The position numbers and the translations under genes were made by a program. A stretch of 64,000 bases of DNA, from the NCBI GenBank assembly GCA_963662945.1, contig OY759974.1, forward strand, positions 1,120,001 through 1,184,000. Reading direction: 5' to 3'. The notes below the pieces were generated by a model, which was not told the DNA's origin, did no database searches, and saw only the letters and a program-made list of their open reading frames with translations. Shown here in pieces: positions 10,062 through 29,760 of the stretch (positions are counted from its first letter, which is position 1; every line of letters starts with the position of its first letter). The DNA is from Arcobacteraceae bacterium. Lineage in GTDB: Bacteria; Campylobacterota; Campylobacteria; Campylobacterales; Arcobacteraceae.

Positions 10062-10421
10062 ATGCAGAAAATAAAATATATAATCATTCTTATCTTAGCT
10101 TTATCATTGGTATTTGTATATATCCAATTAAGCGATTATGATAAAATATCAAATTCACTTTTACAACAAAACTCATCTTCAAGTAAAAAAATAGAAGACT
10201 TAGAAAGTCAAGTATCTACATTAAAAGCTGAAAATCAAGTGTTGCAAGATACAATTGCTACTCAAAAGCAAAAAATATTTTTACTTGAAGAGGAGTTAGT
10301 ATTGATTAAATATGATAAATCTGATTCTAATACTACAATAACTGACACAAATACTACAACCGAACCACCAATATTCCAAAAAGAAGAAAAATCACTTTTT
10401 GACAAAATATTTAACAAATAA
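10062..10421 (+). CDS. Hypothetical protein with membrane anchor and coiled coil
   Basis: N-terminal hydrophobic segment followed by heptad-like sequence. Confidence 0.6.
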   Translation: MQKIKYIIILILALSLVFVYIQLSDYDKISNSLLQQNSSSSKKIEDLESQVSTLKAENQVLQDTIATQKQKIFLLEEELVLIKYDKSDSNTTITDTNTTTEPPIFQKEEKSLFDKIFNK

Positions 10422-10431
10422 GAGGATAGAG

Positions 10432-11118
10432 ATGAGCAACATAATAGATACCATAGATTTTGAGAAACAGGATGGATTAATTCCAGTTATTACTCAAGAC
10501 AACCAAACAAATGAAGTTCTAATGCTTGCATATATGAATAAAGAAGCATTAGAACTAACTCTTAGTACAAATTTTGCTCATTATTTTAGTAGAAGTAAAC
10601 AACGAATTTGGAAAAAAGGGGAAAGTTCAAATCATACCCAAGAGGTTGTATCTATAAGTCTAGATTGTGACAATGACACTATTCTTTTAAAAGTAAATCA
10701 AAATGGTGTTGCCTGTCACACAGGAAGAAAATCTTGTTTTTTCACAGATATAAAAACAGGAGAAACTACAAGTGAAGTTGAAGTTGATACAACAGCTGCT
10801 TATGGTGTAGTAGATACTTTATATCATACTATCTTAGAGAGAAAAAATGATGACCCAACAAAATCATACACAGCAAAACTTCTTCAAGGAAAACAAAACT
10901 CTATGCTTAAAAAAATAGTAGAGGAAGCTGGAGAGTTTACTTTTGCAGTAAAAGACAACGACTCAGAAGAGATTATCTACGAAGGTGCTGATTTATTGTA
11001 TCATTGTTTAGTAGCTCTAGCAAGTGCTAATATAAGTCCAGATAGAATCAAACAAGAGATTGCTAGAAGATTTGGACTTAGCGGGATTGAGGAGAAAAAT
11101 TCAAGAGTAGAGAAGTAA
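10432..11118 (+). CDS. hisIE: Bifunctional phosphoribosyl-AMP cyclohydrolase / phosphoribosyl-ATP diphosphatase
   Basis: WKKGESS, DCDND, ACHTGRKSCF and KIVEEAGE motifs. Start moved to ATG 10432, which follows GAGGA. Confidence 0.95.
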   Translation: MSNIIDTIDFEKQDGLIPVITQDNQTNEVLMLAYMNKEALELTLSTNFAHYFSRSKQRIWKKGESSNHTQEVVSISLDCDNDTILLKVNQNGVACHTGRKSCFFTDIKTGETTSEVEVDTTAAYGVVDTLYHTILERKNDDPTKSYTAKLLQGKQNSMLKKIVEEAGEFTFAVKDNDSEEIIYEGADLLYHCLVALASANISPDRIKQEIARRFGLSGIEEKNSRVEK

Positions 11119-11137
11119 TTTAGATTACTTTTCTACT
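11106..11137. terminator. Hairpin between the originally convergent hisIE and mnmG 3' ends
   Basis: AGTAGAGAAGTAAT-TTAG-ATTACTTTTCTACT followed by a T-rich run. Confidence 0.65.
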
Positions 11138-11147
11138 TCTTTTTACT
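11133..11147 (-). other. Displaced native 3' tail of mnmG (AGT AAA AAG AAG TAG = SKKK*)
   Basis: Removing 11153..29760 and one TTTCA copy restores ...GAT ATG AAA AGT AAA AAG AAG TAG in frame. Confidence 0.85.
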
Positions 11148-11152
11148 TTTCA
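11148..11152. repeat. 5-bp target-site duplication, left copy (TTTCA)
   Basis: Identical to 29761..29765; immediately precedes the terminal TGT. Confidence 0.9.
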
Positions 11153-11280
11153 TGTGAGATACAATAAAGTTTGAGAATGCTTGTAAAGTCATGTATGCTC
11201 CGTGTTTACTAAGTTATACTGGATTATAAAGTCAATTTACTAATAACTAAGTAAATATTTTATTTAATAAAGTTTGATAC
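11153..11280 (+). repeat. Outer left end: terminal TGT plus widely spaced TnsB-binding sites
   Basis: AATAAAGTTTGA at 11163 and 11266; resembles the Tn7 end TGTGGGCGGACAATAAAGT. Confidence 0.85.
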
Positions 11281-11328
11281 TATAGTGAATTTTGTATATT
11301 GCTCTTAACTATGAGGAGTTCCTCATAG

Positions 11329-11466
11329 TTATTCATCTTCATCGATATAAGAATCATTATTTGGATTATGGACATCAGACCAATCATCCATGTCAGCTTC
11401 ATTATTTGGATTGTTAATATCAGACCAAATGTCTAATTCATCTTGAGACATATTTGAGGTATCCAT
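11329..11466 (-). CDS. 45-aa acidic micro-protein with two DxWSDxxNPNN repeats
   Basis: ATG at 11466 after GGAGG; MDTSNMSQDELDIWSDINNPNNEADMDDWSDVHNPNNDSYIDEDE. Confidence 0.6.
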   Translation of the reverse strand: MDTSNMSQDELDIWSDINNPNNEADMDDWSDVHNPNNDSYIDEDE

Positions 11467-11467
11467 T

Positions 11468-11614
11468 TTAATTACCTCCGCTTGAAGAGTTTTTTGATGC
11501 AGCTCTTTGTGCTCTTGCCGAAAAACTTCCTTTTGAGGTATTTCCACCTTTTTTTGCTGTACTTGATTGAATTCTTGCAGCAGCAGTTTTTGTCATTTGA
11601 CTTTTCTTTGTCAT
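11468..11614 (-). CDS. 48-aa basic hydrophilic micro-protein (SMP/LEA-like)
   Basis: ATG at 11614 after AAGGA; MTKKSQMTKTAAARIQSSTAKKGGNTSKGSFSARAQRAASKNSSSGGN. Too short for the ORF track. Confidence 0.65.
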   Translation of the reverse strand: MTKKSQMTKTAAARIQSSTAKKGGNTSKGSFSARAQRAASKNSSSGGN

Positions 11615-11690
11615 AATATGATCCTTTAAATTATATTTCCCTTGCTAGAGATACTAAAATTATAAAACAAAATTTTATAGTCAATTCATT

Positions 11691-12731
11691 CTAATAGTGC
11701 CACTTTACATTTTTAGTCATATAATCAATCATTTTCTTTTGTAAATCTTTTTCTATATCAAAATCATTTAGGTCTTTACAAAAAGGAATACAATATTTAC
11801 CTAAGATATTTAAATCAAAATCTTTTTCATCTAATTCACAAAACATCTTCTCAAAATCGATACAGTAATTTGATTTTAAAACTTCAAGATCTTCTTTCTT
11901 ATTGTATTTTAATTTCTGCTGGATAATGGCTTTATAATTGTTAAGTTTTTCAAAAAATTGTCCTTCTTCTTTATCATCAATATTATATTCTCTTTTAATA
12001 TACAATAGTGCTCTTAGAATCAACATCAAAATTAATTGTGCTCTTTGTTCGTTTTTTTTGATATTTGAAAACAAGGTAACATTAATTACTAAAACTTTTA
12101 AAAACCCTGGTAACTCTCCATTCATCCATTTTGAGACATCATTAATAAATACTTTTTCTGATTGAATATCTTTTATATCTGAGTTATAATTTTCAGCCAT
12201 AGCCTCTGTTAGTTTAATAAAAATCTCATGAAAATCATGTGCAATTCCATTTTGAGTCTTATTGCTTTTTTGTATATAGTAATCAAGATATGGCTTGAAG
12301 CTTTTTTCCCTTAAAGCATCTTCAAAAATAGAAATATCAATATTTAGTTTTTTTATTTTTTCTATAATAAAAGCAATTTGAAAAGAAAATAATTTAATTT
12401 TTTTGTTATTATCATTAATACCATATATATCTAAGAATCTAAGTGTAAATGAAATATTATTTAGTTCCTTGATTAATTCTATACTTTCATCATTATCAAC
12501 TTTATAAAACAAGTTATTAAATAACAAATAAAACTCATTTGGTTCTTTGTATAAAGTTTCTAAAAATGCATCTATTCTCATATTAGTATTATTTTTAAAC
12601 TTATGGAACTTTTTTTTGGCAGGCTCTGTAAAACTATTTTTTATCCGAAAAACATCTTCCCATATATAAACTCTTTGATTAACTCCCCAAGTTTTCCAAA
12701 ATAATGCATTAAAATCTTTTATCATAATCAA
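11691..12731 (-). CDS. Hypothetical cargo protein (346 aa)
   Basis: Long ORF in very AT-rich DNA; no motif recognised. Confidence 0.6.
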   Translation of the reverse strand: MIMIKDFNALFWKTWGVNQRVYIWEDVFRIKNSFTEPAKKKFHKFKNNTNMRIDAFLETLYKEPNEFYLLFNNLFYKVDNDESIELIKELNNISFTLRFLDIYGINDNNKKIKLFSFQIAFIIEKIKKLNIDISIFEDALREKSFKPYLDYYIQKSNKTQNGIAHDFHEIFIKLTEAMAENYNSDIKDIQSEKVFINDVSKWMNGELPGFLKVLVINVTLFSNIKKNEQRAQLILMLILRALLYIKREYNIDDKEEGQFFEKLNNYKAIIQQKLKYNKKEDLEVLKSNYCIDFEKMFCELDEKDFDLNILGKYCIPFCKDLNDFDIEKDLQKKMIDYMTKNVKWHY

Positions 12732-12754
12732 TATCCAAAATTTTATCTTTCATA

Positions 12755-12785
12755 TTTAATAAAATCAATATCGATTATCAAACTT
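12755..12785. repeat. Degenerate transposon right-end remnant
   Basis: TTTAATAAAATCA (identical to 29703..29715) and ATTATCAAACTT (TnsB site in right-end orientation); no terminal ACA. Confidence 0.6.
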
Positions 12786-12807
12786 CTCTACTTCTTCCTA
12801 CTCTTCA
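12782..12807. repeat. Diverged copy of the mnmG tail/terminator arm
   Basis: 22/26 identical to 11127..11152; the minus strand reads TG AAG AGT AGG AAG AAG TAG. Confidence 0.8.
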
Positions 12808-12934
12808 TGTGATATACAATAAAGTTTGATAACAAAAGAAAGATTTTCAGTCCTTTTATTTCAAATTAAATCAATAGTTATATAGTAAATTTTCTGTAAA
12901 CAAACTAAAAATATATTTAATAAAGTTTGATAAT
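12808..12934 (+). repeat. Inner (nested) left end
   Basis: TGTGATATACAATAAAGTTTGATAAC at 12808 and a second AATAAAGTTTGATAAT at 12919. Site spacing is 101 nt versus 103 nt at the outer end. Confidence 0.85.
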
Positions 12935-12948
12935 AAACTAACTATATG

Positions 12949-13806
12949 CTATATTGATATAACTTTTAAATTGCCTTTTTGTGTAAAAAATATCTCATTA
13001 TAATAAGTTGTTAAATTACTTACTCTATCTTTAGTAATTTGACTAAATACTTTATTTTTAATATTAAATTTATACAACCCATTTCTAGCTTGAATAATAT
13101 AATATGATTTATCAAAACTTATTACTAATTTAATAGTATTTGGAACATCATTCTCAGGTAGTACATAGCGGCTTGTATCTCCATTTTTAATATTAACTAA
13201 TAATAAGCCAAAGTCATAATCTATTATTGCTAATTGATTGCTTTTGTGATCATAGTAAATATCTTGAGGATTGTTAATTTCTAATTTATGTAATGTTTTA
13301 TAAACAAATTGTGACTTTTTATTTTTATAATCAATTCTATAAACTCCTGAATTTAAAATTGAAAGAAAAATGACTCCGTCATGTGCAACAATAGATGTAA
13401 TAGGTATAGTTTGATCTTGATTATTGAATATATCTAAATATATATCATCAATAAAACTATCATTTCTTAAGTTTATTCCAATTAATCCTCTTGTATTAGA
13501 AATAATAAATAGTACTTGCAGTATAGGATCGATAGTAATAACTTGTGCATCATTTATACTTTTTACTTTCTCTGTATAATTACTATAATATTTGTATAAC
13601 CCATCTCTAGTTAGTATGTAAAACCTATTTCCATATGCTTTAATATCTAAAATTATTGTATTATTCAAATTAAAGTTTGGTTCAAATATTAAATTTTCAT
13701 ACTTTTTATATTTTGTCTTAATATAGTCTTTGGTTATCTCTCCATTTAAATAACTTTTAAATAAATATGATTTATAAATAAATAAGGAAGTGATAATATT
13801 ACTCAT
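12949..13806 (-). CDS. Hypothetical protein, probable beta-propeller
   Basis: Recurrent strand motifs (FYILTRDGLYKY, LFIISNTRGLIGI, IFLSILNSGVYRI, YIIQARNGLYKF); ATGA overlap with the upstream ORF. Confidence 0.55.
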   Translation of the reverse strand: MSNIITSLFIYKSYLFKSYLNGEITKDYIKTKYKKYENLIFEPNFNLNNTIILDIKAYGNRFYILTRDGLYKYYSNYTEKVKSINDAQVITIDPILQVLFIISNTRGLIGINLRNDSFIDDIYLDIFNNQDQTIPITSIVAHDGVIFLSILNSGVYRIDYKNKKSQFVYKTLHKLEINNPQDIYYDHKSNQLAIIDYDFGLLLVNIKNGDTSRYVLPENDVPNTIKLVISFDKSYYIIQARNGLYKFNIKNKVFSQITKDRVSNLTTYYNEIFFTQKGNLKVISI

Positions 13807-14240
13807 AATAACTTGCCTTCTATTAAGGTAGCAATTTCATCTTCAGATAAAATATCATTTGTACACCAAAACTCAAGTAGACTATTACCAATATCGTATT
13901 TTTTATTTTTTTCTTTAAAAGGAAAGACTGGATACCCATGCCAATCATCAGATTGAGGATTTTGTACTGCAGGAAAATAGCCAAACTGTTGTTTTTTTGT
14001 ACCAACTTTAATAATATCATTATCTTGCCTAATAAATCCCCACATATGCCCATTACAATCAATCCATTCTATACGTTGAGAATTTACCATTGTTCCAACT
14101 TCTGAAGTATCAAAAGTTTCAACTTCTAAAACTCTAGAAATCCATAGAGAATGCTTCTTATTTATACTGCTATAATGATGTTTTCCTCTGGATAGGTAAC
14201 TTTTAATACCTAATTTTGTAGGAAGTCTAATATCTCCCAT
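13803..14240 (-). CDS. Hypothetical protein, possible nuclease toxin
   Basis: 145 aa with KHH and a WHGYP motif; GAGG ribosome-binding site. Confidence 0.5.
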   Translation of the reverse strand: MGDIRLPTKLGIKSYLSRGKHHYSSINKKHSLWISRVLEVETFDTSEVGTMVNSQRIEWIDCNGHMWGFIRQDNDIIKVGTKKQQFGYFPAVQNPQSDDWHGYPVFPFKEKNKKYDIGNSLLEFWCTNDILSEDEIATLIEGKLL

Positions 14241-14251
14241 TTAATTCCTCA

Positions 14252-15001
14252 TTAGTTGATTGATTCAATATCTATCCATTCACCATAGTAATTGTCCGAG
14301 TACCAGTAAATTCTATCTCCTGTATCATATTTATTTCTATCATTTTCAAACTCTTGCTTTAAAGACTCAAAAATTGTAAATTTTAAAGTTTTAATTAAAT
14401 CTACTTTTTTATTATCAGTCTTAATATGAAGTTCTAAGGAGTAATTTCCATCTTTCCAATTAAAATGTTTTTCAAACAATTCTTCAAATGCCACAATAAA
14501 TGACTTATTTGCCCTTACTATTTCACCTTTTTCAGTTTCTTTTTTAATTCTTTCAATTTCATTTTTTAAGTTTCTTTCATTCTCTTTGTATTTTTTAACA
14601 TCATCTCTTGAAAAAAAATTTAAAAATCTTGCTCCATGGTGCCACTCCTCATTTGGATCAAGAGATACTTTCTTAAATGGAAAATAATAACTATCATTAA
14701 ATTTTTCTAAATAATTTTTTAAAGGCAATTTCATTATTTTTTCACCGTCTCTATAAACATCAATAAATATTTGATTTATGGATAAAGACGAACCACCAAT
14801 ATTTTTTATTATCAAATTTATTTGTATTATAGGATTACCAACATGATGTGTAATCCAAATTGAATCGTAAATATCAACTTCTAATTTTGCTTTTTTAAAG
14901 AAACGCCTAAGATAAGGAAGTGCACTTATTATCAGTGCTATAAAAGCAATAACCACACTCCAAAATTCTGGACGTGTGTAAAATGAAATATTATTATCCA
15001 T
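14252..15001 (-). CDS. Hypothetical protein with N-terminal TM helix
   Basis: FWSVVIAFIALIISALPYL anchor followed by a beta-rich soluble domain. Confidence 0.6.
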   Translation of the reverse strand: MDNNISFYTRPEFWSVVIAFIALIISALPYLRRFFKKAKLEVDIYDSIWITHHVGNPIIQINLIIKNIGGSSLSINQIFIDVYRDGEKIMKLPLKNYLEKFNDSYYFPFKKVSLDPNEEWHHGARFLNFFSRDDVKKYKENERNLKNEIERIKKETEKGEIVRANKSFIVAFEELFEKHFNWKDGNYSLELHIKTDNKKVDLIKTLKFTIFESLKQEFENDRNKYDTGDRIYWYSDNYYGEWIDIESIN

Positions 15002-15227
15002 TAGATATTTCCTAGTAGTAGTATAGTTAACATTTTAACATAGTATACTTATATTAAATAATAAAACTAAAATGTAATTTAATAAAATTTTTGTGTAGTA
15101 AAAATACCATTATTCTTTTTATTATTTAAAGTATATACTAAGTATGTGCAATTATTTTATTTTATAATATTGAAGTTTAATATTATTTTGTATACTCCTA
15201 GATACTCTTTGTAACTTATATTTACTA

Positions 15228-16973
15228 TTAAATATCTAGTATTTCAAGAATTTTACTTTCTAACCAATTTTTTCTATTTTCTATAGAAGTAGCATTCCAC
15301 TCCATAGGATAATCAGCAATAACTTTTTTAGTCATATCAAATGCTGTTACACCTGTATCATCTTCAGAATATTTACCTTTTCCTTTATAAATATTGATTT
15401 TTATATTATAAGGATTATTACTTGCAGAAATATTTTTTGAGCCACTCAATAGCGTTAAATTACCTAAACTATGTAAATATCTATTTACTTCATCTATAGT
15501 AAATTTATTTTTCCAATCATCAAATTCATTCCAACCAATTGGTAAAATGTGTTCTGTATGAATTGTATTATCTAAGTGAATGTACGCTAATTTTGCATCA
15601 TCTGTTATCCTATATTCTATTATTGTTAATAAAGGCTTTATCCATGCTGTATGATAAACATCATTACTATTAATCACTTCTTTAACTTGTTTTACAATAT
15701 TATCTTTTTCAAGTTTATTATTTAAACTAGTAGTTATATAGTTTATATGCTTTTTATCTTTTATCCATGAAATCATGTTAAATGAAATTTGTTTAATATG
15801 AGATAGTGTTTTTCCTGACATCCAATTTAAATAATAAAATCTTCTAAGAGAAATTTGTAACTCATCATAATATTCATAGTTTGTATGTAAAGCTGTAAGT
15901 AAAATACTCTTCCAGTATACTGTCCATCTTAAATACCAAAAGGAATAAAGTATTTTATCTTCCTTGTCCCAAATCTGATTTTTATAGGCATTAACAAACT
16001 CTGAAAAATCTTTTATGGTTTCATTTGGATCTTGTTGTTCAAAAATATCTTGCAATTCATCAGAAAGTGATTTTTTTGGATTTCTAGCAATTAAATAGTA
16101 AAGGTATAATGTAAACATATCGTTCATACTATCATATGTACCAGTTAATAAATTTTCTAAACGTCTCCATTCCGCAATAAACTCGTTTTCATCTTCTATC
16201 CTCGCTTCAAAATTTTCACCCTCATCAACATATTTTTTTTCTATTTGTTCTAATAAAAAGCTTTTTACTAAATCTGATGCAGTAAGGTCCATTCCCCTAT
16301 CATTTAAGACTTGAAATAGTTTTATTGCAAAACTTCTATCTTCACAATCTATTCTAATTATTGACACTTTATTAAATAAATATTCAATTAAATCTCCTGC
16401 TTTATCTTCACCAATCTCTTCAAGTTTACTTCTTAATATATAGGCACTATTTTGAAATTTCAACTTTGGTTGTTCATCATCCTTAAGTTGATACTTATAA
16501 GGTTTTTGATGCTTTAAAGTTGATCCCTCATTTATAATATTTTGTTTAAAGTCTGCAGAATGTTGGGGATCAGTAAGTAAAGTTAGTCTTTGATCACCAA
16601 AATTAAATATAGCACTGTTAATATGGTTTGTATTAATAGAATTTTTATTGTTATTAATATTAGGATATAAATCTCTTAATACACATAACAATATCATTAA
16701 AGTTGTTAACCTTTGTTGTCCATCAACAATATCAAATCTATTTGAACCCGCTTGCGGAGCTGCAGTAATTATTGAACCTAAAAAATAGTTTTTTGATTCA
16801 TTCTCAAATGATTCAAAAATATCATCCCATAACTGTTCAATTTGTTCATCTAGCCACTTATATGGTCTTTGATATTTAGGTATTCTATAAATAGAATCTG
16901 TATCCATAAAAAGTTGCTTTATTGTTCTTGATCTTGGTGTAAATAGTTCCAAATTATCCCTTTCATTAATCAC
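15228..16973 (-). CDS. GmrSD-family (DUF262 + DUF1524/HNH) nuclease, putative modification-dependent restriction enzyme
   Basis: IPKYQRPYKW, DGQQR and FQVLNDRG (DUF262); EHILP and LGNLTLLSGSKN (HNH-like). Confidence 0.88.
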   Translation of the reverse strand: MINERDNLELFTPRSRTIKQLFMDTDSIYRIPKYQRPYKWLDEQIEQLWDDIFESFENESKNYFLGSIITAAPQAGSNRFDIVDGQQRLTTLMILLCVLRDLYPNINNNKNSINTNHINSAIFNFGDQRLTLLTDPQHSADFKQNIINEGSTLKHQKPYKYQLKDDEQPKLKFQNSAYILRSKLEEIGEDKAGDLIEYLFNKVSIIRIDCEDRSFAIKLFQVLNDRGMDLTASDLVKSFLLEQIEKKYVDEGENFEARIEDENEFIAEWRRLENLLTGTYDSMNDMFTLYLYYLIARNPKKSLSDELQDIFEQQDPNETIKDFSEFVNAYKNQIWDKEDKILYSFWYLRWTVYWKSILLTALHTNYEYYDELQISLRRFYYLNWMSGKTLSHIKQISFNMISWIKDKKHINYITTSLNNKLEKDNIVKQVKEVINSNDVYHTAWIKPLLTIIEYRITDDAKLAYIHLDNTIHTEHILPIGWNEFDDWKNKFTIDEVNRYLHSLGNLTLLSGSKNISASNNPYNIKINIYKGKGKYSEDDTGVTAFDMTKKVIADYPMEWNATSIENRKNWLESKILEILDI

Positions 16974-17063
16974 AAATTATATATAAAAGTTATTTTATCT
17001 TAATAGTTGTAAGTAAAATGTTAAATAATTAAACTTCTAACTACCCTAAAAATTCATAAATTA

Positions 17064-17072
17064 TGATATACT
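17064..17072 (+). promoter_or_regulatory. Extended -10 promoter candidate for the tns operon
   Basis: TGATATACT (TGn-TATACT) about 30 nt upstream of tnsA. Confidence 0.4.
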
Positions 17073-17101
17073 ACTAAAATATGATAATAGGGAGAAATAA
17101 A

Positions 17102-17773
17102 ATGAGTAATAGTCATATTACTTTTCCACAAAGAAAAATCAAAAAAAGCTACCGTTCTGTTACTGGACACTTCCCTAGTATTAAAAACAATAAATCAATA
17201 GCATTTGAATCAAAACTAGAAAGTGAATTTTTTTTAACTCTTGAATTTGATGATAATGTAGCCACTTATCAAGAACAACCACAAATTGAAATTATTTTAG
17301 ATAATAAAACAACAACTTATAGTGCAGATTGTTATATACAAAGACCAAAGGGCTCTTTAAATCGTGATGCTCTTGTAGAAGTTAAATATACTACTGAATT
17401 GGAAAAAGAAAAAGAATATTTTGATAAGAAATTTAAAGCTATTGAAGCTTCTACTGAAGAACTTGATTTAGACTTTATAATTTATACAGAACTTCAATAT
17501 CCTCTAGAATATATTACAAATCTTAAATTTTTATATCGATATAGAACTCAACAAAGAGAAATGAGATATGATGAGATTATTAATGAACTATTACAAGATA
17601 AAAAATTATCTGCACATGAGTTAGCAGAAACTATCTCAAAAAATAAAGCGGAATATATTATTGTAGCAAATGCAATTTGGGGCTTAGTTGCAAATAATAT
17701 ACTCACAACTGATTTAAAATCATCTGAGATTAACATGAAATCTATACTGGAGAAAAATAATGGCTGTTGTTAA
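17102..17773 (+). CDS. tnsA: TnsA endonuclease
   Basis: RSVTG, FESKLE, YQEQP, YSAD and LVEVKY PD-(D/E)XK pattern; ATG 17102 follows GGGAG. Confidence 0.92.
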   Translation: MSNSHITFPQRKIKKSYRSVTGHFPSIKNNKSIAFESKLESEFFLTLEFDDNVATYQEQPQIEIILDNKTTTYSADCYIQRPKGSLNRDALVEVKYTTELEKEKEYFDKKFKAIEASTEELDLDFIIYTELQYPLEYITNLKFLYRYRTQQREMRYDEIINELLQDKKLSAHELAETISKNKAEYIIVANAIWGLVANNILTTDLKSSEINMKSILEKNNGCC

Positions 17774-19667
17774 ACTAACTCTAAATTCAACTATTGTTTT
17801 TGAAGGTGTAAAATATCTCATCAAAGGTTATGCTTCCCTTGATGAAGTTCTTGTAAAACAAATAGATCCACCTCATAAGGAAAAGATTTTAAAAGTTAGT
17901 GATATTATTAAAGAACCTCAAAACTCAACAGATAACATTCAAAGAGAACTTGTGGATACCAATGACAAAGAGTTTCAAAAAGCACTAGAGAGATACAAGG
18001 TAATAGAATCTTTAGTTGATATGCCAAGTAGAAACTCCAAAGAGGTACAAAAAGTTGCTAAAAAATATAAAAAAGGTGTAGCTACTGTTTATCGTTGGTT
18101 AAGTACTTTTGAAAAATTTGGTACTATTAGCTCATTGGTAGCTTCTTATAACAACTGTGGAGGTAAAGGGAAAAGTCGTCTCAATGAATCTGTAGATGCA
18201 GTTATAGACTCGGTACTTGAAGAACTATATCTCAATAAACAAAAATATGCTTTTCTAACAGTTTATAGAAAAATAGAGCAGCTATGTAAAAATCTTGAAT
18301 TAGAAGTTCCAAACAAAAACACGGTAAGAAGTAGAATCAAAGCACTAGACCCAAAACTTATCACTAAATATAGACATGGTGAAAAGATAAGAGATACAAG
18401 AGGAACACCTGGAAAGTTTCCAGAAGTAAAAATGCCCCTTGACGTTATACAAATAGATCATACTAAAGTTGATGTAATACTTGTTGACGAAGAGACAAGA
18501 GAAGAGATAGGAAGACCATTTATTACAGTTGCTATTGATGTATTTAGTAGAATGATATATGGTTTTTATATCTCTTATGAAGCTCCAAGTTTTTTTAGTG
18601 TTGGACAATGTCTTTTACATGCCATCTTACCCAAAGATGAAATATTAAAAAAATACAATGTAACTGGAGAATGGCCAGTTTTTGGTCTACCCCAAGCAGT
18701 CCATATGGATAATGGAAAAGATTTTCAATCAGTGAGTCTAAAAAAGTTTTGTCAAGAATATAGAATATCTGATATTTATAGACCCGTTGCTCGCCCAGAA
18801 TTTGGTGGAAAAATCGAGAGGGTGATAAGAACAGCAATGGAAAAAGTTCACGAATTACCAGGTTCAACATCTTCTAATATTCAGGACAAAGGAACCTATG
18901 ATTCTCAAAAAATGGCTACTATGACTATCAATGAATTAGAACAATGGTATACGGACTTTGTAGTAAATATTTATCATAAAACAATACATAGTAGCCTTGG
19001 TGTGACCCCTGAAGAAAAATTCTATGAGGGTATGTATGGAGTTAGTGGTGACTCTATACCTTTTTTACCACAAGTTCCTGCAGATACTATTAAACTAAAA
19101 ATGTCACTTCTTCCAGCTTTTGAAAGAACTGTACAAAAAAATGGAATCACAATAGACTATATAACCTATTTTTCCGAAACACTTAGAAAATGGATAGTAC
19201 CAGCAGCCTATAAAAAACTCAATAAGACTTCAAATACAATAACTTGCAGAAGAGACCCAAGAGATATTAGTAAACTTTATGTATATGACCCAGATATAAA
19301 TGATTATATAATTGTACCCTATGCTAATATTAAAAAGCCAGCTATGAACCTTACAGAGCTAAGAAGAGCTATTTCTGAAGCTAAGAAAACAGTAACAGGA
19401 AGAGAACTAGAATCATATGATATCTATGAAGCTTATGACAGACTTCACCAATATGTAGAAAATTCAAAAAGAGAAAAGAAGTCTGCAAGAAGACAAGCTA
19501 GTTCAAAAAAGCATTTAAAAAAGAATATTGAATACGAAAAACAAATCTTACAAGATGGTAATGGTCTTAAACAAGATGAGAAATCACTCCAAAACTCAAC
19601 AACTCATATCCAGAATACTTTTCAAGAAGAAGAGGATGATGGCTATGAATATTATCCAATTGGTTAG
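17760..19667 (+). CDS. tnsB: TnsB/TniA DDE transposase
   Basis: HTH (VATVYRW), QIDHT, HMDNG and GKIER catalytic triad, Mu-like C-terminal RDPRDIS. Confidence 0.95.
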   Translation: MAVVKLTLNSTIVFEGVKYLIKGYASLDEVLVKQIDPPHKEKILKVSDIIKEPQNSTDNIQRELVDTNDKEFQKALERYKVIESLVDMPSRNSKEVQKVAKKYKKGVATVYRWLSTFEKFGTISSLVASYNNCGGKGKSRLNESVDAVIDSVLEELYLNKQKYAFLTVYRKIEQLCKNLELEVPNKNTVRSRIKALDPKLITKYRHGEKIRDTRGTPGKFPEVKMPLDVIQIDHTKVDVILVDEETREEIGRPFITVAIDVFSRMIYGFYISYEAPSFFSVGQCLLHAILPKDEILKKYNVTGEWPVFGLPQAVHMDNGKDFQSVSLKKFCQEYRISDIYRPVARPEFGGKIERVIRTAMEKVHELPGSTSSNIQDKGTYDSQKMATMTINELEQWYTDFVVNIYHKTIHSSLGVTPEEKFYEGMYGVSGDSIPFLPQVPADTIKLKMSLLPAFERTVQKNGITIDYITYFSETLRKWIVPAAYKKLNKTSNTITCRRDPRDISKLYVYDPDINDYIIVPYANIKKPAMNLTELRRAISEAKKTVTGRELESYDIYEAYDRLHQYVENSKREKKSARRQASSKKHLKKNIEYEKQILQDGNGLKQDEKSLQNSTTHIQNTFQEEEDDGYEYYPIG

Positions 19668-19679
19668 GTTAGGTAAAAA

Positions 19680-20549
19680 ATGAATAATAGAATCTTAATT
19701 AAAGAAGCTGAAGAATATTTAACTAAAAGTGACGAAGAGAGAATTCTCTATTGTAAAAAAGATCATTGGATAGGATATGGAGCAGCTGTAAAATTGTTAG
19801 AACTTCTAGAAGATAAATTTGAAGACCCTCCACAAATGAGACATGAAGGGTTATTAATATATGGAGATCCTAATAATGGGAAAACTGCAATATTGAAAAA
19901 AATGTACAATTTACATAAAACCAATTTAGACTATGTAAATAAAGAAAATGAGATTGTCTATGAGATACCAATTATCTATTTTCAAGCACCTACAATTCCT
20001 GATGAGAGTAGATTGTATAGTTTAATACTCAATGAACTTTTGGTACCACACAAGCATACTGAAAAGATAGTAGAAAAAGCAAAATTATGTGAACACTATC
20101 TTAGAAAACTAGGTACTAAAATGATTTTAATTGATGAAATTCATAGTGCTCTAACAGGAAATCTCAATAAACAAAGAACTTTTATAGATGATTTAAAACA
20201 ACTAAGCAATAGACTTTCTCTAACGATTATCTTAGCAGGAACGAGAGAAGCACACTCAGCACTTTCTATTGGGAGTGAAACGAATACTAGATTTCCTTCT
20301 CTTGAACTTCCACGCTGGAACAATGATAGAAAGTTTAGATCTTTTGTAGCTACTTATGAAAGATGTTTACCACTTAAACTCGCTTCAAATCTGGCTGACA
20401 ATCCAGAGATTATGAATGCTTTATTTTATCAATCAGAGGGTTTAATAGGTAAGACTGTAAATCTTTTGAAAAAAGCAGCTGTAAAAGCAATCAAATCAAA
20501 AAGAGAATATATCATAGCTAGTGATATAGAGTACTTACCAAAACTCTGA
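19680..20549 (+). CDS. tnsC: TnsC/TniB AAA+ ATPase (short type)
   Basis: WIGY, Walker A GDPNNGKT, Walker B ILIDEIH; 289 aa. Confidence 0.92.
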   Translation: MNNRILIKEAEEYLTKSDEERILYCKKDHWIGYGAAVKLLELLEDKFEDPPQMRHEGLLIYGDPNNGKTAILKKMYNLHKTNLDYVNKENEIVYEIPIIYFQAPTIPDESRLYSLILNELLVPHKHTEKIVEKAKLCEHYLRKLGTKMILIDEIHSALTGNLNKQRTFIDDLKQLSNRLSLTIILAGTREAHSALSIGSETNTRFPSLELPRWNNDRKFRSFVATYERCLPLKLASNLADNPEIMNALFYQSEGLIGKTVNLLKKAAVKAIKSKREYIIASDIEYLPKL

Positions 20550-20551
20550 TT

Positions 20552-21733
20552 ATGGCACAGTCAAAGAGAAATCAGGATTGGGTTCAAGACTATTTCTTTT
20601 TGATTATTCCAAAACTTCTACCAGATGAGTTATTAAGTTCATGGCTTACAAGATTAGCAATTGAACATAGATATAAACTTTCTGACTTTCTATCTTTATT
20701 TGTTAGAAAACAAGGACATAAAATCTGTAATATAGATATAGATTTTCAGTACAATGAAAAATTATTTCTAACCTTAGCTTTAAAAAGCAATATACCTATA
20801 AAAGATATTTGGAAACTGTCCCTTAGTAGTGAAGAGGGATATCTCTATTCCTGTAATGATTGCCTCTATCCTCCTAAACAAATAAGAAAATTAAAAGACA
20901 AAAGAACACACTATGGACTGATGTTTTGTCCAAAATGTTTAGCTGAAGATAAAATACCTTATTTTAGAAAAAAATGGAGATACTATTTTTATAATGCTTG
21001 TCCTAAACATAATATTTTTTTAACAGATAGATGTTGGTGCTGCTATGAAAGAATTTGTCTTCCTAAAATATCACATATGAAAGGTTTATCATATTGCAGT
21101 AGATGTGAAAAAGATTTAAGTACTACTATAGCAATACCTTTACAAAGTAATTATCAATATGCTTTAAAGGCTATACGATGGTTTGAAAAAGGTTTAAAAA
21201 AAGGCTATTTTATCATCAATCATCAAAAAGTAGCTTCTCTATTTGTCTTTGAAAGCTTCACAAATCTTTGCTTTTTACTTGATAGAAAAGAAAATTTAGT
21301 TTTAGATAACTTTCCAATGATTCAAGAATACGAAACAATATGTAAAAAACTTGCAAAATATGATTCTAAAAAAGCAACTTCTATACAAAAAGATTTTATC
21401 TTAACAGCAATGGTATATTTTTTATTTCAAAACTATCCAAAAAATATTCTAAGTTTTGCAGAAACTAACCATCTAACACATAGAGAATTTGTACATGGTT
21501 TTATAGATATCCCATATTGGTACAAAAATATAATTGACGAACTACTACCAGCACAAAATAAAATTGGTAGAGAGATAAGTGAAAGTGAAGTTAGAGCAGC
21601 TATAAAATATTTACAGAAACAGAATACTAAAGTAACACAGGAGGCAGTTGCAAACATTGTTGGCTGTCATTTTAGTATTCATAAGGGATTTGTGAAAATT
21701 TATAAAGATGCAAAAAAGTATTTGACCTTATAA
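20552..21733 (+). CDS. tniQ: TniQ/TnsD target-selection protein with C-terminal HTH-like extension
   Basis: PDELLSSWLTRLA, CPKC...CPKH and CWCC...CSRC zinc ligands; C-terminal EVRAAIKYL...VTQEAVANIVG. Confidence 0.9.
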   Translation: MAQSKRNQDWVQDYFFLIIPKLLPDELLSSWLTRLAIEHRYKLSDFLSLFVRKQGHKICNIDIDFQYNEKLFLTLALKSNIPIKDIWKLSLSSEEGYLYSCNDCLYPPKQIRKLKDKRTHYGLMFCPKCLAEDKIPYFRKKWRYYFYNACPKHNIFLTDRCWCCYERICLPKISHMKGLSYCSRCEKDLSTTIAIPLQSNYQYALKAIRWFEKGLKKGYFIINHQKVASLFVFESFTNLCFLLDRKENLVLDNFPMIQEYETICKKLAKYDSKKATSIQKDFILTAMVYFLFQNYPKNILSFAETNHLTHREFVHGFIDIPYWYKNIIDELLPAQNKIGREISESEVRAAIKYLQKQNTKVTQEAVANIVGCHFSIHKGFVKIYKDAKKYLTL

Positions 21734-21734
21734 A

Positions 21735-22736
21735 CTAATCCTTGATTTTATCAAATAAGTCAAACTCTATTGTATATTTATTAATTCTAAAATACCCTTC
21801 GCTTGATGATGCAGAGTAAGAATCAGTAAATGGGTAATGTATATGTAAATTTATATCCTGATTATCATAATATTCATTCTCAAATATATAAAATAAAGCA
21901 ATTCCTATAGTTTGCGCTTTTGTTGCTAAAGGAGCTAAATGAATATTGTTAACTGCACTTTTATTTATAGATACATATTTTTTAACATATTCTGAAATAA
22001 CATGAGCTGTAATAAATGGGTTATTAGCAGGAGCATAAAGCAATTCTGTATTTTCTTTTATACCAAGTTCAGTTTTTGATTTTAATAAATTTAATATATT
22101 TTCTTGATACATAATAGCTTGCAAAGAAGGAAAACCAATTAATGGTTTAATTTCATTTGCTGTGACATTACGTATAACTTTATTAACCAATTTAGAATCA
22201 TATCCTACATTTACTATAAATAAATCATTTTCTCCTGATTTTGAGTATGTTTCGTATGGTGAGACAATATTTCTTGATTCAACAATATTATCAGAAAATT
22301 TTGTTTTATCACTTTTTAAATATCTCTGAGGTTCTGTATAAATTAAGTCGAATTTATCGATTCCCTTTTCTTTAAACCAAAATAAAAGAAAAACTAAATA
22401 AGGCTTATTAAAACCTGTTGTATCTATACAAATTTTATCCTTATCAGTAATATTTATATATTTTTCACACATGGCATTAATATATTCAGATTCTTTAATA
22501 TTATGATTAATTATATTATATTCAAAGATTTCACCATTAATTTGGGAAGTATCTATATTGTATTCTGGGAAAATTAAATATATCTTTTTTTCTGCCTGTA
22601 TATTATCATATGTTTTAATGACAATATCTTCTTGTGTGTATGCAGAGATAAATAAATCATAATTTTCAATATCTGTAGAAAACTCTTCAAAGCTTCTATA
22701 AGAATCATAATTAAAAAGATGATACTTACTAATCAT
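21735..22736 (-). CDS. Uncharacterised alpha/beta protein, last gene of the 4-gene cargo operon
   Basis: 333 aa (IDTTGF, YTEP, GFPSL, LAPLATK); 1-nt overlap with the ATPase stop. Confidence 0.65.
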   Translation of the reverse strand: MISKYHLFNYDSYRSFEEFSTDIENYDLFISAYTQEDIVIKTYDNIQAEKKIYLIFPEYNIDTSQINGEIFEYNIINHNIKESEYINAMCEKYINITDKDKICIDTTGFNKPYLVFLLFWFKEKGIDKFDLIYTEPQRYLKSDKTKFSDNIVESRNIVSPYETYSKSGENDLFIVNVGYDSKLVNKVIRNVTANEIKPLIGFPSLQAIMYQENILNLLKSKTELGIKENTELLYAPANNPFITAHVISEYVKKYVSINKSAVNNIHLAPLATKAQTIGIALFYIFENEYYDNQDINLHIHYPFTDSYSASSSEGYFRINKYTIEFDLFDKIKD

Positions 22737-24745
22737 TATAAAGTATCTCCAAATAAACTAGGAGTAATAAAAGAAAGCACTTTTTCTTTTTTGTTGAAAG
22801 GGGCATTATATCTTGACATATACTCTTTATGAATATTTAGCCATTCTTTATCTTCACCTTTACATAATATCTCTATATCATCAGCTTTAAATTGAAAAGT
22901 TCCTCCTATAGCAATATGCAAATCCCATTTTGCTGTTAAGATTGCAGGGACAGAATAACTATCCAACATCATTCCAGAGTTATTTTTTTCTTTTTTATCA
23001 ATACTTTTTTTTATTAGTAACATATGATTAACTGCTTTAGTAAGAATTGACTCTGATTCCTCTGATAATGTACCCTTATAGGAAAAAGCAATCAATGTTT
23101 TCTCCGTAGGTTTATTTGACATTCGAAATGCTTTAAAAAAACTATTTATTCTCTCTATCATTTTAATAACGAGTTTATTTTCTATATCTATAATTGCATA
23201 AGTCCAAAACTCATCTGAAGCATCTTTTATTGCTTTATATTGAGTTTTACATTTTATGGGATTATTACTATCAAACATAGGTTCTTCAGAAAATTTAGAA
23301 TTAATATAAATTTCACTTAATATCAACATTAAATTTCTAGGATTTGCATGCGAAAAATCAATTATTTTTTCAAGACCACAATTAAAAAATGTTATCGAAT
23401 AATCTCTACAAATCTGAAAGTAAAAGGTATTTTTTAAATGCCTAAGAGTTTCATTATCATGAATATTTTTAGAACTTCCTTCCATTGAACTTTTAATTTC
23501 TATACTTTTTTCAACTAAATTCTTGTTTTTACTCCAAGCTTGATATAGCAACCATATATTTTCTTTTTCTTTAAGTGGATCCATTGGACAAAATAAATTA
23601 TCTATTATAATTGATATTTCATCTAATGATAAACTTAATTCTTCTGAATATTCTTCTAACTGTTTTGATAAAGTTAAAAAATACTTTCTATCTTTCGAGT
23701 CAGGATGAATATCTAATACTTTTTTGATTATTTGATTTTCATTTAATTTTTGAAAAGAATCAATAAGAGCTTTCTCATCTAAATTAGCAAGATTTTTATT
23801 AAGTCTTTTTCTAATTAAATTAATAGCAAACTGTTTATAGTTGTTTGAATTATCAAGGTATGTTTCTAAATATTTTTTCGTTACTTCTGCATATGAATTT
23901 TTTTCATCATCTGAAAAAGTTTTTTCTTCTTTTATTGAATATAATCTACCTGATATTCTTATTGAAATTCTTTCTGAATATTTAGGGTGTCTTAAAATTG
24001 TATTCACAAAAACTTGCTGTTCTTTACTTAAATCTTCAAACTGGTCTAATAAAAATAAGAATCGAACATCTTTCAAAATCTTACTAGAATCTAGTATATA
24101 ATAACATATATCATAGAACATATTCGATCTTGTATCGAAAACTACATCAATATCAAGAGAATCTTTAAATCCTGTACGTAATCTCGAAAAAGCCCTATCA
24201 ACTTTTTTATGTTCTTGTCGGATTTTTTTATATATATACTCTATTGTAATTGTTTCATCAACTGAATCAAAAAAACACTCATTATACATACTAGAAACTT
24301 TTTCACAGTCTATATCATCTAACCCATTTAGCTGTAAATCTATTATTTGTTCTAAAAATGCTTCAATCAAAATTAAATTAAAATAATAAAAATACCACTC
24401 TTCCCAAATTGACTTATCTAATTTTGAGCCACTAAATCTTTCAAACTGAAAGTTTCCTAATTCTAATAGTAAACTTGTATATTTATCCTCTTTAATTTGC
24501 TCTAATATGGATCTATGTGTCGTTTTTAAAGCTCTAATTTTTTGAGCCTTATAAGAGCAATATCGTAAAATGTGAGTTTTCCCACTTCCTTTTCCGCCTA
24601 ATATTATTAAAGGTCTAGGATTTGTAGGTTCAATTACATCCAAAAACTTTTTATGTTCAATTTCATCATTTAATTCAACCCAAAAATTAACTATTTCATC
24701 ATTATTTAAATGAACAGCTTTAATATTTGAAAATGGATTATTCAT
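22736..24745 (-). CDS. P-loop ATPase (ORC/Cdc6- or STAND-like)
   Basis: Walker A GGKGSGKT, Walker B FLLDQFE, later SHANPRNL sensor-like motif; 669 aa. Confidence 0.75.
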   Translation of the reverse strand: MNNPFSNIKAVHLNNDEIVNFWVELNDEIEHKKFLDVIEPTNPRPLIILGGKGSGKTHILRYCSYKAQKIRALKTTHRSILEQIKEDKYTSLLLELGNFQFERFSGSKLDKSIWEEWYFYYFNLILIEAFLEQIIDLQLNGLDDIDCEKVSSMYNECFFDSVDETITIEYIYKKIRQEHKKVDRAFSRLRTGFKDSLDIDVVFDTRSNMFYDICYYILDSSKILKDVRFLFLLDQFEDLSKEQQVFVNTILRHPKYSERISIRISGRLYSIKEEKTFSDDEKNSYAEVTKKYLETYLDNSNNYKQFAINLIRKRLNKNLANLDEKALIDSFQKLNENQIIKKVLDIHPDSKDRKYFLTLSKQLEEYSEELSLSLDEISIIIDNLFCPMDPLKEKENIWLLYQAWSKNKNLVEKSIEIKSSMEGSSKNIHDNETLRHLKNTFYFQICRDYSITFFNCGLEKIIDFSHANPRNLMLILSEIYINSKFSEEPMFDSNNPIKCKTQYKAIKDASDEFWTYAIIDIENKLVIKMIERINSFFKAFRMSNKPTEKTLIAFSYKGTLSEESESILTKAVNHMLLIKKSIDKKEKNNSGMMLDSYSVPAILTAKWDLHIAIGGTFQFKADDIEILCKGEDKEWLNIHKEYMSRYNAPFNKKEKVLSFITPSLFGDTL

Positions 24746-25729
24746 TCAACTATTTCCTTTTTTTAAAAGCATATACTTTTTACTATATCGTTTAAATATT
24801 GATTGCCATTGCTTATTATTTGCCCAAAATATGGGAAGACTATTATTAGGAATATTATAAAAAAACCCTAATGCTAATTGGCCATCAGCAAATCCACACT
24901 CGTCCTTATTTAATTTTTTATTTTCATCTCTACTAATATCTTCATTTCCTAACTCAAACTTTTTTGAATAAGTATTTACACATAGTTCTTTAAATTCTTC
25001 TTTACAATTAGAAATAGTTTGAAAATATCTAGAAGTATCTGAAAAAACCTTATATGTCTCATCCAATTCAAAAATAGTATCAACATTATCAAATAGTTTT
25101 GAATCTTTTAGAGTTTTTAATGCTGTAGTAGTTGCAAATAGCGTGAAATATGAAATTTTAATTTTAGGAACTTTAGTTCTAATCTCTGAAATAATTTTAT
25201 GAAAACTTTCATTAGTTGCCTGACTACCACTACCACTTATATCATCAATATAAATTAACTGTTCTAGTTCATTATATTTTTCATTAACTATTAGTTCACA
25301 AGAATGAATAAATAATTCCTTTGGAATATTATTTCTTTGCCTAAAAAAATAAAGTATTATACTACTACTTTCTGATGGATTACCAATACTAGAAAATCTA
25401 GTTTTTAATAAGCTGTCATCTAAATATTCATTGTAATCATTTAACTTTAATGATTTCATTTCTTTTCTATATTTCTTTACTAAAGGAGCAATATATTTAT
25501 CTTTATATAATGATTTTAAAGCCTGTTTTATTTCTCTCTGATCATAAAACATAAATTGACTAAGAAGACTTAACGCAATAAACTTATTTTTATTTCTTTT
25601 ATCAGAAACTTCTTCAAAGTTCTTTAACCATTCTTCTATATCTTGTTCTAAAACTTTATGTCCCCATAACCATGTTGATAAATCTTGTATTTGGTCTTTT
25701 AACTTTTGTATTTGATTATTATATGTCAT
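24746..25729 (-). CDS. Phosphoribosyltransferase-fold protein
   Basis: PRPP-loop motif LIYIDDISGSGSQ; also GNPSESS and IPNNSLPIFW. Confidence 0.7.
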   Translation of the reverse strand: MTYNNQIQKLKDQIQDLSTWLWGHKVLEQDIEEWLKNFEEVSDKRNKNKFIALSLLSQFMFYDQREIKQALKSLYKDKYIAPLVKKYRKEMKSLKLNDYNEYLDDSLLKTRFSSIGNPSESSSIILYFFRQRNNIPKELFIHSCELIVNEKYNELEQLIYIDDISGSGSQATNESFHKIISEIRTKVPKIKISYFTLFATTTALKTLKDSKLFDNVDTIFELDETYKVFSDTSRYFQTISNCKEEFKELCVNTYSKKFELGNEDISRDENKKLNKDECGFADGQLALGFFYNIPNNSLPIFWANNKQWQSIFKRYSKKYMLLKKGNS

Positions 25730-27092: not shown

Positions 27093-27167
27093 TACTGCCC
27101 CAATTAATTCTTAATTTGTTAATATAACAAATTCAAGCTGCTATTAAGATAAAATGGTAAGTAAATT

Positions 27168-27947
27168 TTAAAATTCTATTTCAATACCTATTGGACAATG
27201 GTCAGAACCTTCTATTTCATCTAAAATAAAAGCATCTTTTAGTTTATTTTGTAAATCACTAGAAATAAAAATATAGTCAATTCTCCAGCCTTCATTTTTT
27301 ACTCGTCCTCTTGATCGATAAGACCACCAAGTATAAGCTTCTTCTTTTTCTCCATGAATCTGTCTATAGGTATCTATATAACCTACTTGGATAAACTTAT
27401 CTACACACTCCCTTTCAATATCAGAAAATCCAGACTTACTATATATTTTAGTTTTTTTTAAATCAATATCTTTATGTGCAATATTAAAATCACCACAGAT
27501 TATTATAGATTTTCCATCAGCTCGTAATTCTTCACAATGTGAAAAAAATTTATTATAAAAATTAATTTTAAATTCTAATCTTTCTTTTGATATCTTGCCA
27601 TTTGGAAAATAAACATTGAAAACTACTATATTTTCATAGTGTTGCTCAATAACCCTACCTTCCATATCAGCATCAACTAATTCACAAGTATTTTCTCTGA
27701 CGAAATCTATATTAGAATATGTCAAAGTACCAGATAAACCTTTCGTAATACCACTATTTACTGTAAAATTTTTATACTGTTTATTAAAGCTTTTAGGTAT
27801 TTCTTCTTTTATTGCTTTAATCTCTTGTAGACATAAAATATGAGGATGGATTTCATCAACCCAAAAAAAAGAATCTTTTTTTGCAGCAGCTCTTAAACCA
27901 TTAACATTCCATGAAAATATTCTTATTTTTTCTTTTAAAGTTTTTAT
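27168..27947 (-). CDS. xth: Exodeoxyribonuclease III / AP endonuclease (no canonical start codon)
   Basis: Frame open upstream of the track ORF through FSWNVNGLRA and LCLQEIK. NVYFPNG, GDFNIAH, RIDY and SDHCP intact. Best start is ATA 27947, 7 nt after AGGA. Confidence 0.85.
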   Translation of the reverse strand: MKTLKEKIRIFSWNVNGLRAAAKKDSFFWVDEIHPHILCLQEIKAIKEEIPKSFNKQYKNFTVNSGITKGLSGTLTYSNIDFVRENTCELVDADMEGRVIEQHYENIVVFNVYFPNGKISKERLEFKINFYNKFFSHCEELRADGKSIIICGDFNIAHKDIDLKKTKIYSKSGFSDIERECVDKFIQVGYIDTYRQIHGEKEEAYTWWSYRSRGRVKNEGWRIDYIFISSDLQNKLKDAFILDEIEGSDHCPIGIEIEF

Positions 27948-27963
27948 TAATATTTCCTATTAG

Positions 27964-29670: not shown

Positions 29671-29691
29671 TTTATTTTCTTATTTTATTCT

Positions 29692-29760
29692 CAATATCAA
29701 ACTTTAATAAAATCATTATCAAACTTTATTGTCCATTATCAAACTTTTTTGTTTCTTACA
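29692..29760 (-). repeat. Right end: terminal TGT plus three closely spaced TnsB-binding sites
   Basis: Minus strand reads TGTAAGAA-ACAAAAAAGTTTGATAATG-G-ACAATAAAGTTTGATAATG-ATT-TTATTAAAGTTTGATATTG (sites at 29734-52, 29714-32, 29692-710). Confidence 0.9.

Follow-up and report, generated by a model that had tools for sequence, protein, structure and literature searches.

At the mnmG locus of this Arcobacteraceae genome, two related Tn7-like elements are stacked in a single attachment site, i.e. the last mnmG codons, and between the two elements lies a scrap of a foreign mnmG tail that matches the live mnmG allele of a congener base for base. The window, i.e. the whole 64,000-nt stretch of DNA that was analysed and whose coordinates are used throughout, is part of a complete 2.5-Mb genome (G000). 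A previous sequence-only reading of this window had arrived at a history in which the inner element first inserted into another mnmG allele, next to an older element, before the composite moved to its present place by means of its outer left end.

As a whole, the 18.6-kb insertion splits a convergent pair of host genes, hisIE (10399-11118, plus strand; Pfam PRA-CH and PRA-PH) and mnmG on the minus strand. The mnmG body (29766-31653; Pfam GIDA, E = 5.6e-163) now reads into the transposon right end, such that the entire open reading frame (29719-31653) has its stop at 29719, and this lysine-codon-rich end provides mnmG with a substitute C-terminus of 19 residues. On the other side of the insertion, the 26 nt to the left of 11153 carry on the mnmG frame on the minus strand (M-K-S-K-K-K-stop), which indicates that the element has severed the last mnmG codons. 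This native tail (11127-11152, minus strand, with K-S-K-K-K-stop and the 3′UTR) runs on continuously from hisIE and has a homologous counterpart in the hisIE-tail region of the congeneric genome G131. The hisIE 3′ end and the native mnmG tail also form an inverted repeat (11101-11145, with 13-nt arms including one G/T position), which is probably a shared bidirectional terminator.

The outer left end (11153-11290, plus strand) begins with TGT at 11153 and has repeats at 11163 and 11266; the inner left end (12808-12940, plus strand) begins with TGT at 12808 and has repeats at 12818 and 12919; and the right end (29695-29760, minus strand) has three packed repeats at 29695, 29717 and 29737 and finishes with ...ACA at 29760. 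A 22-nt terminal pattern occurs three times in the window against 0.01 expected, i.e. at 11153 (plus), 12808 (plus) and 29739-29760 (minus), and these copies are also the only ones in the entire 2.5-Mb genome. With the 14-nt repeat AATAAAGTTTGATA at +10 and about +112 in both left ends, the second left end has the same two-site layout as the outer one, just as the sequence-only reading had described it. These end repeats are putative transposase-binding sites, assigned from sequence. The outer and inner left ends are homologous throughout their length, yet they have diverged, and ends of the outer type are also present in two metagenome contigs (L043 and L045). It had also been noticed that only the outer left end shares a pentamer with the right flank, and this can be directly read from the DNA: TTTCA precedes the outer left end (11148-11152) and recurs behind the right end (29761-29765), these two copies making up the outer target-site duplication, whereas CTTCA (12803-12807) stands before the inner left end. 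It is a firm conclusion that the outer left end, together with the right end, shows the hallmarks of a single insertion at the native site of this genome.

The inner element (12808-29760) carries a tnsABC-tniQ set as well as defence cargo. In Pfam searches, the products of tnsA, tnsB, tnsC/tniB and tniQ (17081-21733, plus strand) matched Tn7_TnsA-like_N (E = 4.1e-10), Mu-transpos_C (44 bits with a cut-off of 21.7) along with rve (30.9 bits, just below the cut-off of 32.6), TniB (E = 2e-51) and TniQ (E = 4.1e-22), respectively; tniQ is single, and a TnsF-like gene was not recognised by the Pfam search in the element. By its TnsA and TnsB, its TnsC/TniB and TniQ, the TGT...ACA termini, the end repeats, the 5-bp duplication and the att site, this element qualifies as a Tn7-like transposon. 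The tns operon lies at the end with the spaced repeats, distal to mnmG, and reads inward; a convention that goes by proximity to tnsA would name the duplicated ‘left’ end a right end, but the labels of the sequence-only reading have been kept here.

To the left of the inner element, the segment from 11153 to 12785 represents the left part of an older, non-autonomous element, i.e. a truncated derivative devoid of tns genes, with a small cargo on the minus strand (11329-12731) of two ORFs of 72 and 48 aa and ORF346 (11691-12731). Its right end is represented by a beheaded remnant (12755-12785, minus strand), which consists of the second repeat and the spacer but is missing the terminal 38 nt. 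Apart from a 7-nt insertion, this remnant is identical to 29703-29726 of the true right end (24/24), and it is also oriented as a right end; the gapped pattern has two matches in the window, and none was seen in 100 shuffles. Thus, a decayed right end does precede the foreign tail, and the older element postulated beside the inner one is represented by this remnant together with the outer left end and the ORF346 segment.

Elements of this older type seem to get around. Relatives of ORF346, whose only Pfam match is a sub-threshold one to the CRISPR Cas6 N-terminal domain (18.9 bits with a cut-off of 23.9), were absent from the species-representative genomes and were found on four metagenome contigs only, which are 88-92% identical at the nucleotide level to 11122-12733, a range that includes the outer left end and part of the flank. 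In two of these contigs the left end abuts other mnmG tails at the same mnmG position, i.e. a tail like that of genome G127 in L043 and one like that of G128 in L045. In the other two (L042 and L044), other genes are located upstream of ORF346, and homology to the window ends at the ORF346 start. The right-end remnant and the foreign tail are absent from all four of these short contigs, among which only L042 and L044 extend upstream, so that none of them reveals an intact right end of the older type. Since the older element is 88-92% alike across hosts while mnmG is only about 80% alike, this type of element must be mobile. A further contig of 1520 nt from a microbial-mat metagenome (X1) is about 92% identical to 11140-12704 and ends at 12704; X1 has almost no cover of the remaining window and is thus uninformative on absence of the inner element. 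This contig had suggested that the older element co-diverged with a sister species, an idea that was dropped because of the 88-92% identity found even where mnmG is at about 80%. L043 and the X1 contig, the latter from Logan, not only end at the same position, 27 nt short of the ORF346 start, but also have in common a deletion of about 60-70 nt (about 11478-11546), and probably derive from one element and organism; their common stop at 12704 may reflect a repeat or a variable boundary.

The key piece of the locus is the short stretch between this remnant and the inner left end. At 12782-12807 (minus strand) it reads M-K-S-R-K-K-stop followed by AGAAGT, with CTTCA at 12803-12807. It agrees with the native tail at 22 of 26 positions, KSRKK replacing KSKKK as had been seen before, and none of 2000 shuffles reached this score, which rules out chance similarity. 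With the adjoining left ends included, 11127-11177 and 12782-12832 are 88% identical over 51 nt. A KSRKK-type allele also exists in nature: when mnmG 3′ ends were collected from the genus (with matches in 27 of 28 genomes, and one locus stopping at a contig end), the tails turned out to be variable (MKNKKVTVQ-stop, MKSKKVIVK-stop, MKIKKK-stop and others), and MKSRKK-stop occurred in G131 only. In line with this, a 27-mer of the tail, allowing for up to three mismatches, was present in two of 184 genomes of the family, i.e. in the nested copy in G000 and, as an exact match, in the live mnmG end of G131, which is identical to 12778-12807 at 30 of 30 nt (...IDMKSRKK-stop). The mnmG bodies of these two genomes, however, share only 88% identity across 1800 nt and 86% within the last 150 nt, with four differences in the last 33 nt of the body alone. 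A tail identical to that of G131 next to mnmG bodies at 86-88% means that this tail is foreign to the nearby gene and has not co-evolved with it. The comparison therefore confirms the trapped tail as a real scar of an earlier insertion at the same position of another mnmG allele, and the claim that the inner element had once resided at the same codon of such an allele stands. Together, the inner left end, CTTCA and the MKSRKK tail firmly represent the left half of a selector-directed insertion into this other allele; the matching junction on the right has since disappeared.

Could the tail be something other than host DNA, i.e. a variant right-end terminus that mimics an mnmG tail, a chance match or a chimera? 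The right end is indeed rich in lysine codons and supplies a substitute C-terminus, and in two genomes of the genus (G132 and G135) fossil right ends encode the MnmG C-terminus. Yet the score against the native tail was matched by 0 of 2000 shuffles, whereas the alignment score against the right-end terminus was met by 65 of 2000; its first base is 3 nt farther away from the TTTGA core than TGT is in all three ends; the piece starts with AGT rather than TGT; G131 has it as the in-frame end of its live mnmG; and contigs that bridge the region do so with 0 differences. A variant right-end terminus was rejected for its spacing, its AGT start and its far greater closeness to the native tail, and we regard this whole group of explanations as hardly credible. 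The bridging contigs are one of 44 kb (X9, covering 10800-30500) and one of 27.5 kb (X11, covering 12349-30500), both with 0 differences, and since they cross 12780-12810 unchanged, an assembly chimera at this point is ruled out; they stem from public runs of one sample, probably the source of the window itself, and thus speak for consistency rather than being an independent replication. From a second sample of the same study (X12) there are pieces with 0 differences, and among the matches listed none bridges 12780-12810. Eleven bases of the trapped tail are a perfect complement of the hisIE arm of the inverted repeat, so that the foreign allele probably originated at a locus where hisIE was likewise the convergent neighbour. 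The tail overlaps the right-end remnant at an AAGT microhomology (12782-12785), a motif that occurs in all three right-end repeats as well as in the native mnmG tail.

The genome which has the MKSRKK allele alive also illustrates what may happen at this site. G131, a member of the same genus, features the same convergent hisIE-mnmG locus, but in the order hisIE, a fossil tail with KSKKK-stop, TTTCA, an orphan left end, 1.47 kb of further DNA and an intact mnmG ending in MKSRKK-stop. The first 22 nt of the orphan left end, which has one repeat only, are identical to those of the outer end in G000, and the 1.47 kb contain an ORF for a membrane protein of 419 aa that was found in one of the 28 genomes of the genus. 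A tniQ of the G000 type was not found in G131, nor is there a right end before its mnmG, with the similarity to the remnant downstream of the tail being non-significant (449 of 2000 shuffles reached the score). Thus, a beheaded element next to an mnmG that has been healed with an MKSRKK tail is a state that exists in nature, and a newcomer inserting into it would produce the order of inner left end, CTTCA and tail that is found in G000. G131 itself is not the donor, because its cargo is different and what its remnant shares with G000 is limited to the tail and about 26 nt of the left end.

Insertion at precisely this point is a habit of the entire family. Insertions occupy the same mnmG position (±1 nt) in G000, G131, G078, L043, L045 and two Campylobacter MAGs (G184 and G185), which carry the TniQ relatives at 59-60% identity. 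In one of these, a C. showae MAG (G184), a 22.9-kb element (C10:15155-38070) sits in the last mnmG codons with GTTCA on both sides; in the other (G185), the two ends are on separate contigs and flanked by CATTC at an offset of +1. In G078 (L005, C24, about 293-1522), mnmG contains a mini-element of 1.23 kb with both ends but devoid of tns genes, which is thus a predicted non-autonomous family member that would have to be mobilised in trans; its duplication is CATAT, at the same distance from a conserved ATTGATA. With the duplicated pentamer varying and the position being constant, the selector appears to measure from conserved upstream coding sequence, which would place the binding of TniQ at the conserved coding part of mnmG. 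Site specificity, originally proposed from the nested end alone, is thus independently established, as other species, and Campylobacter too, have insertions at this very mnmG position. Within the family, left-end patterns (with up to two mismatches) occur in five of 184 genomes, and among these five only G000 itself has tns genes of this type; within the genus, TniQ relatives were found in G000 and in G114, the latter at 28% identity.

Past occupation of the site can also be traced by what follows the insertion point. Right-end similarity just behind it was scored in 12 genomes of the genus against 1000 shuffles each, which revealed fossil right ends in G132 and G135 and a solo 19-nt terminus in G125 (0 of 1000 shuffles in each case), a marginal similarity in G134 (22 of 1000), a weaker one in G115 (62 of 1000) and nothing in seven of the 12. 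In G132 (L034), a fossil of about 72 nt spans all three repeats with the frame open through them (MKSKKQKSLKADNKDQ-stop), and both there and in G135 (L035) the fossil right ends now encode the C-terminus of MnmG. In effect, host mnmG genes would thus have adopted transposon-end DNA as C-terminal coding sequence. In G125 (L015), the first 19 nt of a right end are left and are joined after ...AAAAGTT to unrelated DNA, such that the break lies beside AAGT.

How, then, did the stack arise? Our main reading, which we hold with a probability of roughly 40%, is that of the sequence-only reading, i.e. a composite transposition starting from the outer left end. It would have begun in a donor lineage with an MKSRKK allele, in which mnmG had been healed beside a beheaded fossil as in G131 today. 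The tns-bearing element would then have inserted at CTTCA, directed by TniQ, leaving the last mnmG codons outside its left end. Finally, its right end would have been paired with the intact outer left end, and the resulting 18.6-kb composite would have entered a virgin mnmG in G000, with TTTCA being duplicated. This reading is in line with both termini of the composite, outer left and right, adjoining the same TTTCA precisely at the point of attachment, with the outer end having TGT and both repeats just like the inner one, with an mnmG body of native type and with the precursor state being documented in G131. There is also a precedent in Tn6022, for which parts of a recent paper describe host DNA captured in a manner ‘akin to composite transposons’ (Correa et al. 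2024, PMC11014353). Several points argue against it, however. The TTTCA pair is weak evidence, as it is equally expected if both flanks are junctions of the older element, and both TGAAA and TGAAG are common at the insertion position in the genus. The second step would be an insertion within about 25-50 nt of cognate repeats, and, if Tn6022 is any guide, target immunity may be severe: according to the same paper, Tn6022 insertion fell from about 100% to about 2e-5% when an immobile copy was already in residence (PMC11014353). A jump from genome to genome also needs a vehicle, but no close TniQ was found on 72,556 plasmids, where the best match had 34% identity over 42% of the query and near-full-length matches had 22-25%. 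No other copy of the composite turned up in the 184 family genomes, the species-representative collection or the metagenome scan, and the search for genomes with the inner element only (12808-29760), with CTTCA on both sides, likewise yielded none in the searched collections. Of the history proposed earlier, the insertion into another allele, the older element and the site specificity have therefore held up, while the move by way of the outer end is less certain; a recombinational route would lead to the same structure, the matching TTTCA pair included.

Whatever the order of events, every model needs recombination or deletion at a microhomology to account for the junction between tail and remnant at AAGT, a step that the sequence-only reading had not included. 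A second explanation, possible though somewhat doubtful, takes such recombination as the event that built the stack. Here the older mini-element would have been resident in the mnmG of G000, with both TTTCA copies its own, and imported donor DNA, carrying the tns-bearing element in a virgin MKSRKK site, would have recombined into its right end. The joints would be the short homology of the right-end termini on one side and the AAGT(TTGA) microhomology on the other, with the resident right end being beheaded at the same time, i.e. a case of homology-facilitated illegitimate recombination or template switching. In naturally transformable bacteria, homology-facilitated illegitimate recombination couples a homologous anchor at one junction with a second junction formed at a few microhomologous bases. 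It would give just the AAGT junction of tail and remnant, although it would be an unusual case in that it heals a target gene or imports a transposon. The tail indeed meets the remnant exactly at AAGT, and a single event would cover the truncation, the foreign tail, the mismatch of CTTCA and TTTCA, the native mnmG body and the TTTCA pair, with no insertion beside cognate binding sites and no plasmid vehicle being needed. The break in G125, whatever its cause, lies beside the same AAGT motif, and fossil or beheaded ends are common at the mnmG site. Yet the left joint has to fall within at most 38 nt of right-end homology, given that both the mnmG body and the 5-nt flank belong to the recipient type; two short-homology joints in one event are rare; and a virgin MKSRKK site has not been seen, with the sole live example, G131, having a fossil beside it.

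In principle, the stack could also have been assembled entirely in place, which we regard as quite improbable. After insertion of the older element at TTTCA, mnmG would have been healed with an imported MKSRKK end, thereby beheading the old right end; the tns-bearing element would then have re-inserted at the same nucleotide and duplicated CTTCA, and the copy in the right flank would have mutated from C to T. That a healed gene and a fossil can stand side by side at this locus is proven for the genus by G131, the change from AAG to AAA is synonymous in an AT-rich genome, and composite movement would be unnecessary. Healing, however, should leave an mnmG 3′ end of the donor type, but the last 150 nt are only 86% identical to G131 next to a tail at 30/30. 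The model also calls for one further point mutation, which would have to hit the very base that was duplicated, and the potential problem of target immunity, as judged by analogy, is the same as with composite transposition.

A more far-reaching idea, which we consider unlikely, is that the AAAAGT/TTGA motif shared by the right end and the mnmG tail is functional. It would repeatedly heal mnmG and thereby behead and immobilise resident elements, as in G131 and the G000 remnant, and it would also serve for the loss of elements with right-end scars staying behind, as in G125, G132 and G135, with the site being re-opened. If so, the att site would go through cycles of occupation, healing and re-occupation, stacked ends would be a readable ‘passport’ of earlier host alleles, and outer-end usage would be a regular route of cargo gain for Tn7-like elements that rely on TniQ only.

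Capture of host DNA by Tn7-like elements with multiple ends is already known, at least from those parts of the Tn6022 paper that deal with it (PMC11014353). Tn6022/AbaR elements in comM of Acinetobacter baumannii are likewise Tn7-like, use a fixed intragenic position, have multiple left and right ends with host DNA captured between them (6.2 kb in the elements described), and their target-site duplications serve to work out which ends have travelled as a pair (Correa et al. 2024, PMC11014353). Correspondingly, the G000 locus has two ends of the same kind and orientation (11153 and 12808) which enclose host-derived DNA, and the outer pair shares TTTCA. The attachment gene of Tn6022 is comM, selected via TniQ and TnsF according to the same sections, whereas it is mnmG with a single tniQ in G000. 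Furthermore, the captured piece in G000 is only 26 nt long, but in contrast to what these sections report for Tn6022 it is the attachment-site tail of another allele and thus records the previous target. It is this particular feature, a captured scrap that is the previous attachment-site tail and matches a live congener allele base for base, that sets the present locus apart.

Tn7 at attTn7 downstream of glmS is similar in having TnsA, TnsB and TnsC and a selector of the TniQ/TnsD type (partly after PMC2918618). It also has TGT...ACA termini, with repeats that are spaced in one of them and packed in the one next to the target gene, as well as a 5-bp duplication, and its insertion point is determined by the distance from conserved coding sequence. 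Tn7, however, spares its target gene by inserting behind the glmS stop codon, whereas the mnmG family severs the last 5-6 codons and supplies a substitute tail. Moreover, the Tn7 tns operon adjoins the packed, target-proximal right end, whereas that of the mnmG family is distal to the target gene, and the TnsC of the G000 element differs from that of Tn7 in being of a short TniB type with 289 aa. We did not find mnmG (gidA) as an attachment site of Tn7-like elements in the literature; the main texts of PMC10293859 and PMC8649781 are without mnmG, and their supplements may list it.

The locus thus provides a datable record, at the sequence level, of a Tn7-like element that changed its host allele and kept a scrap of its former target. 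It supports the idea, so far argued mainly for Tn6022 in Acinetobacter, that multi-ended loci gain new cargo by capturing flanks, and it defines the last mnmG codons as the attachment site of a tnsABC-tniQ family in Campylobacterota. With its short ends, the mnmG site could also be of use for single-copy integration tools in these bacteria.

The cargo of the inner element is located on the minus strand on both sides of the tns genes. Between tniQ and the right end (21735-29670), it comprises ORF333, genes for an ORC-CDC6-like protein, PRTase-CE and a DNA methylase, a fragment of an EEP-nuclease gene and ORF568, assigned by Pfam with the exception of ORF333 and ORF568, which had no Pfam match. 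The ORC-CDC6-like gene (E = 7.6e-81) directly adjoins that for PRTase-CE (E = 8.9e-54) and, together with the DNA methylase gene also present, the region looks like a defence island. The 185-aa EEP-nuclease ORF is probably a fragment, matching only the C-terminal half of the profile. On the other side, three unassigned ORFs and GmrSD (12949-16973; GmrSD by Pfam) lie between tnsA and the inner left end. In the Campylobacter relatives (L049, 6314-6600), tnsA follows directly after the mnmG-distal end, in which four repeats are found within about 190 nt, whereas in G000 4.3 kb of minus-strand cargo including GmrSD separate the inner left end from tnsA (12808-17110). The predicted tnsA start (about 17080-17097) resembles the innermost repeat and ribosome-binding site of the Campylobacter ends, and this resemblance may go back to a third left end that has been displaced and thus to an earlier gain of cargo on this side.
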